Translations under genes and position numbers: made by a program | The notes under the pieces: model-generated | Told to the model about the DNA's origin: nothing | What the model saw: only the letters and a program-made list of their open reading frames with translations | The model's database searches: none | Shown here: piece by piece, positions 1 to 53,362 of the stretch | How the letters are laid out: each line of letters starts with the position of its first letter | Position numbering within the stretch: position 1 is the stretch's first letter | Source of the DNA: Octopus vulgaris | Taxonomy: Eukaryota | Direction of reading: 5' to 3' | Length of the DNA stretch: 64,000 bases | Assembly: GCA_951406725.2 (NCBI GenBank) | Contig: OX597819.1 | Location: 132,742,001-132,806,000, forward strand

Positions 1-730
1 CTCCGTTACTCCAACTGGTTCATATACTCCACTATTCAGCCACATATGATGTCACACAACAGATGAAATCCGTTCATGTACCGCAAAAGGGCCGCATGCA
101 TAAGCTGATGTGAATATGTGTTTCCTTATGCACGCTGCCCTTACGAATTGCATCCACCAACTGCATCTCTAGCGTGACATCATCGGTTACCGAACACTGA
201 AATATACGTAACAAATGAAATGAAAGAAAACCACGTTCAAGATCAGGATTTCTTTTATTTTGCTTCTCTCATTATTGATCTGCTCTTATATTAGGTTAGG
301 GCCCATAACAAATTGCGTCGGACCCTTGCAAACATGCAGCGGTGGAAGCTTCACACGATTAACAGAAAGAGAGGAAACCTGAATGGAATAATTTTCCCAT
401 GCTGAACACATTTTATCATATGTATATATGTTTATAGATTTTGAGAAAAAGGAGGCAGTCAAAAGTTTGGATAATTCTTTAGTAGCGTTTTCGTTCGTTA
501 ATCGAACTCTTCAGGACAGAAAAGCCAAAATGATAAAAACAGAAGCCTTCCTTGTTCTTTTATGTGAATCATATATATATATGTATATATATATATATAT
601 ATATATATATATATATATATATATATATATATATATATAATATTATTAGAGACAAAACCACTATTTTGCAAAACAAACAAGGAAAGACTTAATCAATACA
701 TAAAACTTTAATAAATAGTCAAAAAAACCG

Positions 731-773
731 CCACTACAATTGTTTCTTGTCTTGATCGACAATCTTCAGGTGG
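731..773 (-). ncRNA. Minimal type-I hammerhead ribozyme
   Basis: Reverse complement reads ccac-CTGAAGA-ttgtc-gatcaa-gacaa-GAAA-c-aatt-g-TA-gtgg: intact core, stems I and II, palindromic stem III. Confidence 0.85.
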
Positions 774-2538
774 ACTTCCAATCTAAAATATCAATATTTT
801 AAAATATAAAAATAATAATTTTAAAATAATTAAAGTATGAATGAAAAAATATAAATATATAATCCATATATAACCTATATATAATCCATATATAATACAC
901 ACACGTAAACCACACACCCTCGACATATACAAATACCCACACCACTTACACATACCTATACATACATATAAACCTCAACATACACTCCAAAAACCCACTC
1001 AACCCCACACAGACAAATAAACACAAAAATTATGAATGGATTCTTTTATAAAACTACCATGATAAGCTAAAACTCACAAAACATAAATGATAAAACCTCC
1101 CTTTACTAAACACTATAACATACTTATATAGCAATCCCTTTAACCTATACATTCACACACAAATACACACACGTAAACCACACACCCATAACAAATACAA
1201 ACACCCACCCCACTCACACACACCCACAAGTACATATAAGCCTCAACATATACACCAAACAAAATTACTTTACCAAGGAACTTAACATATGTATAAAAAA
1301 TATATAACCGCTCTGGAAACGAACATCTTTAAAATAATGAATGGAGAAATGGGATAAATGGAATTAAAAATAATATTCACGTGGCAAAACGAACACCACT
1401 CAAAAATTATGAATGAAACAATGTAATAAAACAACCAACATCGAAAATAGACAAATTACCACGAATTCCCTAAAAAAACCCATGATAAACCAAAACTCTT
1501 AAAAACATATAACGATAAAATCTCCCTTTACTAAACTCTATAACAAACCTATATAGCAATCCCCTAACCTAAACATTCACACACAAAAACACACACGTAA
1601 ACCACAGACCCACAACTTATACACATACCTATACTAACTTATAAACCTCAATATACACCAAAAACCCACTCCCTCCCCACACAGACAAATTAACACATAC
1701 ATCCCAAAACCTAAATAACAAACCCATATACACATTCACACACAAACACACACACACGCAAAACACACACACACAACAGATACATATACTCCCTCAATAT
1801 ACGCATATACATACTCACTAAACTCGATATATACAACAATATTTACACACCCACACTCATACAGATAAATAAATTATACAACTAAAAAGTCACACACAAT
1901 CTCATATACATAAACACTCCAATAAAAAACAACATTAAATACATCGTAATTAACCAGAATATCAAAAATAACAATATGACATAAGGAGAAATAAAATACA
2001 TACTTACAAGTCAGTTTCAAATTATGTTAAGTTCCTTGGTAAAGTAATTTTGTTTGGTGTATATGTTGAGGCTTATATGTACTTGTGGGTGTGTGTGAGT
2101 GGGGTGGGTGTTTGTATTTGTTATGGGTGTGTGGTTTACGTGTGTGTATTTGTGTGTGAATGTATAGGTTAAAGGGATTGCTATATAAGTATGTTATAGT
2201 GTTTAGTAAAGGGAGGTTTTATCATTTATGTTTTGTGAGTTTTAGCTTATCATGGTAGTTTTATAAAAGAATCCATTCATAATTTTTGTGTTTATTTGTC
2301 TGTGTGGGGTTGAGTGGGTTTTTGGAGTGTATGTTGAGGTTTATATGTATGTATAGGTATGTGTAAGTGGTGTGGGTATTTGTATATGTCGTGGGTGTGT
2401 GGTTTACGTGTGTGTATTATATATGGATTATATATAGGTTATATATGGATTATATATTTATATTTTTTCATTCATACTTTAATTATTTTAAAATTATTAT
2501 TTTTATATTTTAAAATATTGATATTTTAGATTGGAAGT

Positions 2539-2581
2539 CCACCTGAAGATTGTCGATCAAGACAAGAAACAATTGTAGTGG
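2539..2581 (+). ncRNA. Minimal type-I hammerhead ribozyme
   Basis: ccac/gtgg stem I, CTGAAGA, ttgtc/gacaa stem II, GAAAC-AATT-GTA with a GUA cleavage triplet. Confidence 0.85.
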
Positions 2582-3067
2582 CGGTTTTTTTGACTATTTA
2601 TTAAAGTTTTATGTATTGATTAAGTCTTTCCTTGTTTGTTTTGCAAAATAGTGGTTTTGTCTCTAATAATATTTTATAATATTTTACTATAAAATTGGAT
2701 TTAATCCTAAATCTGATTTTTTCCCTGTAAATTTGGATTTATTCCCTAATATTTATTATTATTATATATATATATATATATATATATATATATATATATA
2801 TGTAAATATATGTATATATATGTATATATATATATATATATATATATATATATATATATAGATATATACATATATACTTATGCACATTTATGTATATATA
2901 TACATACACACACATATATGTGTATATATATATATGTATATATACATACATACATTCTGTATGTATACACACACGCACATATATATATATATATATATAT
3001 ATACATAATGCATATATATATGTATGTATGTATTTATATACATACATACAAACATACATACATACAT

Positions 3068-50404: not shown

Positions 50405-52671
50405 GTCAATAATAATAATAATTATTTTGTTTTGTATTTGCAAGATTTTAGATGTGAAATTGTCTGTTGAATGAGATATTGTTATAGTTCAAGAGAGCCA
50501 TTTTGCCAAAATAAAACCACGGACTGGTTATAGTTCACTTCTTTATTGTTCGCCAATCCATTGATTACTGATTTGTTTCGGTTGTCAAAAGACTTTTTCG
50601 TTACATATACGAATGGCTATCTCCACCGGTTGCCATTTTGTAACTGACTTTCTTTTTGATGTTCTTTCTAATTTGCTAAGCTTCATTTTGTTGCCAAACA
50701 TGTATGTGTGTGTGTGTGTTGTGCAGCTATTGTGTGCGTACGTGTGTGTGAATGTGTTTATAGTATGTGTGCGCATGCGTGTGTTATTGGTGTTGCTGAA
50801 TGTGTTTAGGTGTGTATTTATGTGTGTTGGGTTTACTTTTTATTGTTTATGCCTAATTTCTCTTTTTCTATTTTAATTTCACACTTTACTGACTTCCTAT
50901 TATTGATTTGCAGTTTGTTATGAAATAGATTCGTTTTTCTCGACACCAGGCATTCTTAACTTCTTGGCTAGATTTTGCGAGAATTCTTTTTATATTAATT
51001 TTGCAAGAGTTTTTGATGTGAAAGCCTCTCTTCTAATTGATATTGTAATACATTTGAAAGGTCAGTTTGCCATTAAAGATATAGACACGATATAAAAATG
51101 GTTCCTTTCTTTATTGTCAAGTAATCTAGTAATTATTAATTTATTCGTTTGGTTTATCAAAAAACTGTTTTCATCACACTTCTCTTTGACCTTCTAAATA
51201 AGCAGCCATTCTCCAATTGACTAGGGACCTGCATCATTATGGCTGCAATTTTAGATTATTTAAATCTGTCATATCCTAATGGTAGTCATACCGAGCTGAT
51301 GGCCATGCTGTGATTATAAGCTGGCTCACCATCAGCCAGTTTTATAGGACTTGGCTTTTTGATTTTCTTTCTTCTGTTTCTACGTAGTTATTATACTTTT
51401 TCTTTCTATTTCGTTCTGTTGCAGGGTAAAATGTTTTTCTCGCTTCATATATTTTCCAGCCATTTCCCTGAATTCTATTCTAAAGTCTGTTAGCCTTTCA
51501 GTTTCTTCTTCATAAGTACTTCAAATATAGATGCAGTTCTTGGGAAGGTTAATCTCTGGCGAGAATTCTTGGTGTTAGGTAAAAGCATTTGTGACGTCAT
51601 TTGTTTTGCAGTTTCTGAGAATTTACTAAAACAAAGCTTTGAAATAAGTTCGAACCAAAATAAAGTTTGCTTTAACAATTGTTTTTTTCTTTCTGGAAAA
51701 TAACTGTGAAATCTATATTATCGGTGGAATGTCCTGCATGCTGACCCCGAGTATTGAGTAGAAGCTATATCGGTTCACAATAAGTTTCGATCATATCAAT
51801 AACAACCTGTTAAATGGTGAGCCATATTGTCGTGAATCTTTATAGAATGGAAGTTGTCTGAGACCGAATGGTAGTAGATTAGAATCCTATCAATAGATAA
51901 ACATACCAGCTACTGACATCATGGAGATACAAGAGGCCGTCTTTAAAAAAGGGTAATGTTCAACATAAAATAAATTTACCACCAAATGGAACCTATTGTC
52001 GTGTTATCACCATTATGTTTAATTCGTACATAGAATTTATCTGCATAAAGCATAGATATTAATCACGATGAGTTATCACATAAATGCGTTATATCCTTCA
52101 CAGTTTTTCAGTTGAAGAAAAAGCTTTTGGGATGAGAAGCCATCTACGAATAAAAAAGTATTTACCATAGCAAGGAAAATAAATAAAATAATAATTGGTA
52201 TGAAATCATAAGTTTGTCAACGAAGTATTACAGAAATCTGACGTGAAGCAAACTATAACTGGTCTATATTTGCTGGCGTTTGGAGAGATGAAAAATAAAT
52301 CAACTGCAGCGGAGTCTGGACAGAGATAAAAGAAATGATGTAAATTAAGATGCCACTCAAGTCAACGGAAAACTGTTTTCTTCCAATTAAAATCGTTATT
52401 TTCTGTCAAAATATTTGAATCGTATATCATTCAGAAACAATAAACAATAACATATTTCGGGCCTTGTTGCAAGTCTTCCGGACTATGAGGCGATCATATT
52501 TTTTTCCGGTTCGCTTTCTCTATATGCAAAGTAACCGATTTCTGACTGTTTCTTACATTTCAAGTGTAATAATGCCGACTGATAAACTTTTGTTATGTGG
52601 TAAGTTATGTCTATAACAGAAACTTTTAACCCCAATTTTGATGCAAACACCCTGGCACGTAAACCCAGAAG

Positions 52672-52783
52672 CACACACACACACACACACACACACACAC
52701 ACACACACACACACACACACACACACACACACACACACACACACACACACACATATATATATATATATATATATATATATATA
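52672..52783. repeat. (CA)n(TA)n compound microsatellite
   Basis: Direct reading. Confidence 0.95.
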
Positions 52784-52903
52784 TTCACCTTGTAGTATGC
52801 CGATCAAAGCGCTTTCACTGTTTACGGCTACCTGATGTCATCAACAGAATGGATATAAATGCCACTGTGTCTATCCCAGGAATTCTTCAGTGTCCATCAA
52901 GTA

Positions 52904-53362
52904 TATGACAAATAAAAGAAAGAGAAAATGCAATTCACGAGTTTCCTTACCAATTGCAACCATCGCTTCGACCCATCTTGTATCAGTCCCTCGCGAGTGA
53001 GATACAGTGAACCTGGTTGTAGTGCATCCTTCGGTGCAGATGTGTCTCGTCAGGTGATTTTTCAAAAGGTAACTCGCTCAATAAAATCCTGTTTCGCTTG
53101 GTTCTATTATAATGCATTTCGTTAATTACCTGTAACTGGTTGCATACGGGCAAATATCGATATGCATTATAATCGAACCAAGCGAAACCGAGTTTATTGA
53201 GCAAAGTACCTCTCGACAAGTCACCTGGTGAGGCGCATCTGTGCCAGAGGATGCATCACAACTAGTTGTACAATATTTCAGCCGCAAGGACCCGATGCAA
53301 GATTGGACGAAACGATTAATAAAGTATCTCGTGAAGTCCATCTCTTTTTCTTATTTGTTATA
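52904..53362. mobile_element. ~460-bp imperfect palindrome with a hammerhead-like motif in each arm
   Basis: Symmetric about ~53135 (tttcgcttggttc / gaaccaagcgaaa; ttataatgcat / atgcattataa). Left arm (-) has CTGACGA...GAAG, right arm (+) has CTGGTGA...GAAA. Confidence 0.8.

Follow-up and report, generated by a model that had tools for sequence, protein, structure and literature searches.

Palindromic elements with outward-facing hammerhead motifs in Octopus vulgaris: probable head-to-head insertions of truncated Penelope-like elements

A 64,000-nucleotide stretch of the Octopus vulgaris genome (GCA_951406725.2, contig OX597819.1, positions 132,742,001 to 132,806,000 of the forward strand; hereafter the window, in whose own numbering all positions are given) contains three palindromic elements, E1, E2 and E3, whose inverted arms carry hammerhead ribozyme-like motifs that face outward. 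The question raised by this locus is whether such a palindrome propagates as a unit, or whether it is formed anew each time a retroelement inserts. It seems that the latter applies: with a probability of about 0.8, each element goes back to one insertion of a Penelope-like element (PLE), which left two 5'-truncated, hammerhead-bearing 3' ends head to head. Repeated 5'-inverted Penelope insertions were the first of two explanations offered in the initial annotation of this sequence, and they fit both the anatomy and the literature; no positive support was obtained for the other, which that annotation preferred, namely a stably propagating, palindromic, retrozyme-like class. Directly visible in the sequence are the head-to-head geometry, the near identity of the two arms in the young E1, whose spacer likely continues the left one, and a one-sided extension, as well as the microsatellite neighbours and the decayed cores of the old elements.

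Anatomy of the three palindromes

The window is animal DNA, rich in microsatellites and crowded with retroelement debris. In a palindrome scan of the masked sequence (638 window centres, with the mirror sequence as control), E1, E2 and E3 gave peaks of 228, 368 and 149, whereas the control did not exceed 78, so that the inverted repeats annotated at 639-2673, 34573-35348 and 52904-53362 stand far above the control. A fourth peak (176) was found at 61500, and a weak self-complementary stretch at 16-213 (63%) remained below the scan threshold. The arms differ in divergence, as had been annotated: E1 has 2 mismatches in 656 positions, the arms of E2 differ by 17.7% over 339 aligned columns (82% alike) and those of E3 by 24.5% over 208 columns (76% alike). 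E1 is therefore a young element, and E2 and E3 are old. Equally, the absence of open reading frames (ORFs) was confirmed, the longest stop-to-stop frames being 66 (E1), 79 (E2) and 90 (E3) amino acids, and none of the 7 scanned frames of E2 and E3 reached the Pfam cut-off; such an absence is expected after truncation.

All three elements had been described as abutting CA/TA microsatellites, which holds for one end of each, where the nearest dinucleotide tract lies at 0 (E1), 25 (E2) and 0 nt (E3), and not for the opposite ends, which are 90, 339 and 121 nt away from one. The 3/3 elements that lie within 25 nt of such a tract compare to a background of 5.7% of other positions. No target site duplication (TSD) of at least 6 bp with more than two different letters was present near the element ends, a search that did not extend to TSDs of 2-3 bp or of microsatellite sequence.

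In E1 (634-2678) the left arm (634-1289, minus strand) and the right arm (2023-2678, plus strand) enclose a non-coding spacer of 733 nt (1290-2022). The spacer contains direct sub-repeats of left-arm sequence with 72-82% identity and is therefore not foreign DNA, but likely the 5' continuation, on the minus strand, of the left copy, of which the left arm would be the 3' part. The simplest reading of E1 is thus a 5'-truncated minus-strand copy of 1389 nt fused head to head with a shorter, 5'-truncated plus-strand copy of 656 nt. Each arm carries a minimal type I hammerhead (731-773, minus strand; 2539-2581, plus strand) with a helix I of 4 bp, an intact core, an extra base before a helix II of 5 bp, a palindromic helix III and a GUA triplet, located approximately 100 nt from the arm end and hence close to the 3' terminus of either copy. 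The pattern for this hammerhead, which covers helices I-III, matched twice in the window and not once in 100 shuffles, and the strict hammerhead scan gave 0 matches in the reversed and complemented control sequence. At the left end lies a (TA)n tract (570-638), and a second one starts near 2763; together they may represent the target. On the right, the copy extends some 80 nt further (2679-2760, plus strand) before (TA)n resumes, which could be a PLE 'tail', or possibly flank, as a single copy has been seen.

A search of sequencing runs suggests that E1 belongs to a multi-copy family, since 20 of the 24 runs listed contain its sequence (4 organism labels, 9 studies), with a share of 0.58-0.61 even in small runs of 30-61 million letters; these shares are silent on the centres or the palindromic form of the copies. 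Among the E1-containing runs listed none is recorded as RNA, which has no bearing on expression.

E2 consists of a left arm (34573-34928, minus strand) next to a (CT)n/(CA)n tract, a spacer of approximately 75 nt (34929-35003), the self-complementarity of which is at chance level (its score is reached by 50 of 300 shuffles), and an inverted right arm (35004-35348, plus strand). In E3 the left arm (52904-53134, minus strand) turns into the inverted right arm almost without a loop, the short hairpin loop of the centre and the right arm together spanning 53135-53362 (plus strand) and ending in (CA)n. Within these arms the motifs are in different states of decay. The E2 right motif (35208-35309, plus strand) has both core boxes and a GUC triplet intact around a 77-nt insert, with the base of helix II decayed. 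The E2 left motif (34625-34720, minus strand) has a broken first box (G-GAUGA) and a helix II that closes a 76-nt insert. In the E3 left motif (52958-53056, minus strand), helix II closes a 77-nt insert and the second box is broken (GAAG replacing GAAA). The E3 right motif (53222-53317, plus strand) has a mutated first box (CUGGUGA), and a 9-nt gap has removed its cleavage triplet and helix I. Consequently, the annotated presence of CUGANGA and GAAA on the outward strands of all arms stands for 3 of the 6 arms (both of E1 and the right arm of E2) and fails for the other 3; only one of the four E2/E3 arms keeps both boxes. Loose pairs of this kind are common in any case, given that 22 of the 38 CUGANGA sites in the window have GAAA within 100 nt downstream.

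The three elements had been taken to be independent. E2 and E3, however, appear to be distantly related and hence not independent of each other: they align weakly, 2 of the 4 arm pairs beating all 200 shuffles, and the distance from box to box is 76-77 nt in all four arms. The majority of these four arms is canonical at 10/10 core positions, compared to a non-core identity of 47-51% between the two families. Helix closure occurs right at the boxes in the left arms of E3 (P 0.93, 0 of 300 shuffles) and E2 (P 0.51, 4 of 300), and the insert fails to close in the remaining two arms (P 0.06 and 0.00). Covariation in the stems, proposed in the initial annotation as a check, was not above the controls in this four-row alignment (86 of 500 shuffles reach the score). 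Between arms, the core is identical at 8/10 positions and the sequence outside it at 158/199 (79%, E2) and 141/188 (75%, E3), so the E2/E3 cores are conserved no better than the arms around them, which that annotation had named as grounds for abandoning its proposal; the power of this comparison is low. The E2/E3 motif is probably a hammerhead in decay, its helix II being long and branched.

No hammerhead was reported by Rfam in the window or in E1-E3, and its microRNA matches amount to microsatellite and hairpin noise. Pattern scans for either the E2 arm or the long-helix motif returned 0 loci in the viral, metagenome and genome collections, and searches of the literature (main texts and passages) turned up no PLE hammerhead whose helix II measures 77 nt, although relaxed hammerhead descriptors that allow longer loops are mentioned in a passage of PMC8557442. 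Directly next to E2, a possible further decayed hammerhead can be seen by eye at 35370-35420 (plus strand), which the strict scan did not pass; E2 may have landed next to an older PLE end.

Other insertions in the window and published PLEs

The fourth scan peak corresponds to a palindrome, E4 (61410-61663), that has no hammerhead, consists of the head-to-head duplicated 3' end of a long interspersed element (LINE) and was missed in the initial annotation. We take the LINE to be of the R4/Dong type. The arms of E4 are identical at 98 of 99 positions and have private substitutions in common, and the right arm ends at an internal A run followed by (ATT)n, an arrangement that resembles twin priming with overlap. 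Two other copies of this LINE (6270-6580, plus strand; 63110-63300, minus strand) are linear and continue into the ORF. Since E4 is palindromic in the absence of a hammerhead and the other copies of its family are linear, the palindromic design is optional and untied to ribozymes. Among the LINE sequences of the window, 4697-6391 (plus strand) and 63144-64000 (minus strand) are 94% identical, 5'-truncated copies of one LINE flanked by (ATT)n tracts, and the former has a long intact frame from reverse transcriptase (RT) to endonuclease.

The reverse situation is also found. Additional PLE-type hammerheads, detected at 12505 (minus strand) and 31574 (plus strand) by the strict scan and at 514 (minus strand) by a looser one, neither lie under a palindrome peak nor have a mirror arm. 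Two of these belong to solo ends without an inverted partner (12371-12505 and 483-514, both minus strand), the first of which reaches (TA)/(CA) repeats approximately 100 nt past the motif, like E1. Around the third (31290-31640, plus strand), a head that looks tRNA-like by eye and (AAT)n precede a PLE-type hammerhead end (31569-31612) with one core change; ARAGORN reports no tRNA in this interval, which may be a composite of a short interspersed element (SINE) and a PLE end or a chance neighbourhood. A decayed, 5'-truncated PLE ORF with several in-frame stops is present at 30210-30977 (plus strand), with a Neptune-type zinc finger and a GIY-YIG domain (tblastn against a metagenomic PLE protein, E 8e-9; Pfam GIY-YIG weak). 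This ORF lacks a mirror arm, and its 3' region shows no clear hammerhead. When the four E2/E3 motifs were used as a profile, no additional member came up in the window or among 20 loci from metagenomes and other collections (best other E 2.2), which leaves E2 and E3 unlinked to this remnant.

Those 20 loci were retrieved with the short-hammerhead pattern. None resembles the window, helix II has at least 4 bp in 10/20, none has an inverted repeat longer than 39 nt, and one lies behind a GIY-YIG PLE ORF. Being short contigs of other organisms, they are uninformative on the frequency of inversion. In viral contigs no PLE relatives were found. Four of the loci (L002, L009, L013 and L020) are related metagenomic elements in which a long proline-rich ORF follows a minimal hammerhead; the hammerhead of L009 is itself preceded by a GIY-YIG PLE ORF, which suggests a two-ORF, Neptune-like element in tandem.

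The published structure of PLE insertions, as given in the passages of the sources used here, is close to that of E1-E3. According to PMC8557442, a PLE typically has an adjacent inverted, 5'-truncated copy at its 5' end and a tail on one side, and a bias towards microsatellites masks its TSDs. Inverted pseudo-long terminal repeats (pLTRs) of approximately 200 bp are described in PMC3846280, with palindromes where the inverted copies meet and a head-to-head order as the commonest arrangement; self-priming is proposed there. Dual minimal hammerheads on opposite strands, 100-700 bp apart, have been attributed to truncated PLEs (PMC4209133). A PLE protein cleaves and extends both strands, two RT start sites delimit the tail, and insertion is independent of ribozyme cleavage (PMC11167929). 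With the endonuclease-containing (EN+) units of Penelope/Poseidon, Neptune and Nematis (PMC8557442, PMC3846280), the present elements thus have in common the head-to-head inverted copies with unequal truncation and one-sided extension, microsatellite neighbours without a discernible TSD, a hammerhead (E1) or hammerhead-like motif (E2, E3) near each 3' end, arms in the length range of pLTRs (approximately 225 nt in E3) and, for E3, the palindromic junction. With the minimal type I hammerheads of metazoan PLEs (PMC4209133), E1 has in common the short helix I, the extra base before helix II and the palindromic helix III, and the E2/E3 four-arm majority the core boxes and the palindromic helix III.

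On the basis of this biochemistry, an RT/GIY-YIG protein would nick AT-rich or microsatellite DNA, and complementary DNA (cDNA) would be primed on both strands from one of the two start sites, with or without a tail. An early stop and the joining of two 5' ends would yield a product such as E1, or, alternatively, the first cDNA might fold back at a short palindrome and prime its own copy, which would fit E3 with its almost loop-free centre. Each locus would thus form its own mirror arm, which would decay afterwards, and the outward orientation of the hammerheads would merely reflect their position close to the 3' end of either copy. Such products would be dead on arrival, as they have no ORF and a single ribozyme on each strand, and their RNA would be one long hairpin.

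Several observations weigh against a PLE insertion as the source. RT or GIY-YIG sequence is attached to none of the three elements, and none has DNA similarity to the PLE remnant at 30210-30977, so that a PLE origin is deduced from motif and architecture. Unlike the EN+ units, E1-E3 have no ORF remnant, the longer copy of E1 is non-coding over its 1389 nt, and the extension of approximately 80 nt is twice the published tail (30-40 nt). The 76-77-nt branched domain of E2 and E3 is far longer than the 4-8 bp hairpin that forms helix II in the PLE hammerheads of the literature consulted (PMC4209133), 3/4 of their cores are broken, and Rfam does not recognise them. Furthermore, no second copy of the E1, E2 or E3 family was seen in the window and the collection scans, and the solo hammerhead ends come from other families. 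Finally, the design also arises from a LINE, so that its geometry is not a sufficient mark of a PLE.

Alternative origins and the retrozyme question

The palindrome could itself be mobile, in which case at least E2 and E3 would be non-autonomous hairpin elements copied whole by PLE proteins in trans. Both are compact, near-perfect hairpins without an ORF that have the unusual long-helix-II motif in common, pLTR sequences alone are able to mobilise cargo in trans (PMC3846280, in the part consulted), and E1 probably belongs to a multi-copy family. Against this, a transcript across an element would carry one sense ribozyme and is predicted to fold into a single hairpin (E2, -415.7 kcal/mol, z -22; E3, -216.6 kcal/mol, z -19). 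The hairpin buries the ribozyme, antisense pairing of the 44-nt motif of E1 being worth -80.7 kcal/mol compared to -6.2 kcal/mol for its helices I and II, and each element has a single hammerhead per strand, by which unit-length RNA cannot be excised. With one hammerhead per strand and its burial in a long hairpin, a retrozyme-like excision cycle is unlikely, and the retrozyme cycle was rejected for the single ribozyme per strand. Animal non-LTR retrozymes are likewise non-coding, have a type I hammerhead and are thought to derive from PLE pLTRs, but they are direct tandem repeats that require two motifs, with at least two ribozymes on the same strand, rather than one per strand in inverted order (passages of bioRxiv 10.64898/2026.07.22.740005 and PMC7229834). 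In addition, most E2/E3 cores are broken and kept no better than their flanks, the spacer and one-sided extension of E1 mark two separately truncated copies, and the run search leaves the palindromic state of its copies aside. Mobility of the palindrome itself is therefore unlikely, and it is similarly improbable that an undescribed, non-autonomous family, mobilised by PLEs and with a 77-nt branched helix II in its type I hammerhead, spread as fixed-centre hairpins and left E2 and E3 as relics. A centre of symmetry common to many copies was rejected as sole proof of unit propagation, because fixed palindromes at the 5' ends of pLTRs could recreate it. On the whole, propagation as a unit is disfavoured by anatomy, decay and the controls within the window, which is not a genome-wide census.

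For E2 and E3, an origin as old foldback or miniature inverted-repeat (MITE-type) DNA transposons, with a captured or coincidental hammerhead-like motif, would explain long terminal inverted repeats without an ORF, a covariation score within the range of shuffled controls and the frequency of loose CUGANGA..GAAA pairs. It is quite unlikely, given that no TSD of at least 6 bp was found at the element ends, that the four-arm majority retains a canonical core at far lower non-core identity, that helix closure of the insert falls precisely on the core boxes in two arms and that the motifs have the same orientation as in E1. Highly unlikely is the formation of the mirror arms after insertion, by inverted duplication during break repair, or, for E1, by a fold-back artefact of assembly. 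The near identity of the E1 arms and the same design in the non-PLE element E4 would agree with it, but in 4/4 cases the symmetry ends at or near the 3' end of the element, with different sequence in the outer flanks, a limit that neither repair nor read fold-back would observe. Arms with 18-25% divergence (E2, E3) are, moreover, not artefacts.

Meaning for Penelope-like elements

Read as PLE insertions, E1-E3 are likely debris of a kind already described, and matter little as such; the long-helix-II motif of E2 and E3 is a residual curiosity. How PLEs form their inverted copies is still open in the part of the literature consulted, and a young, high-copy family such as that of E1 would be suited to the mapping of junctions. 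Should the long-helix-II motif turn out to be active as a ribozyme in a PLE clade, the descriptors for hammerheads, in which helix II is usually limited to a far smaller length, would have to be widened. If, on the other hand, the palindromes propagate whole, an RT must copy duplex RNA of several hundred bp, which would be new.

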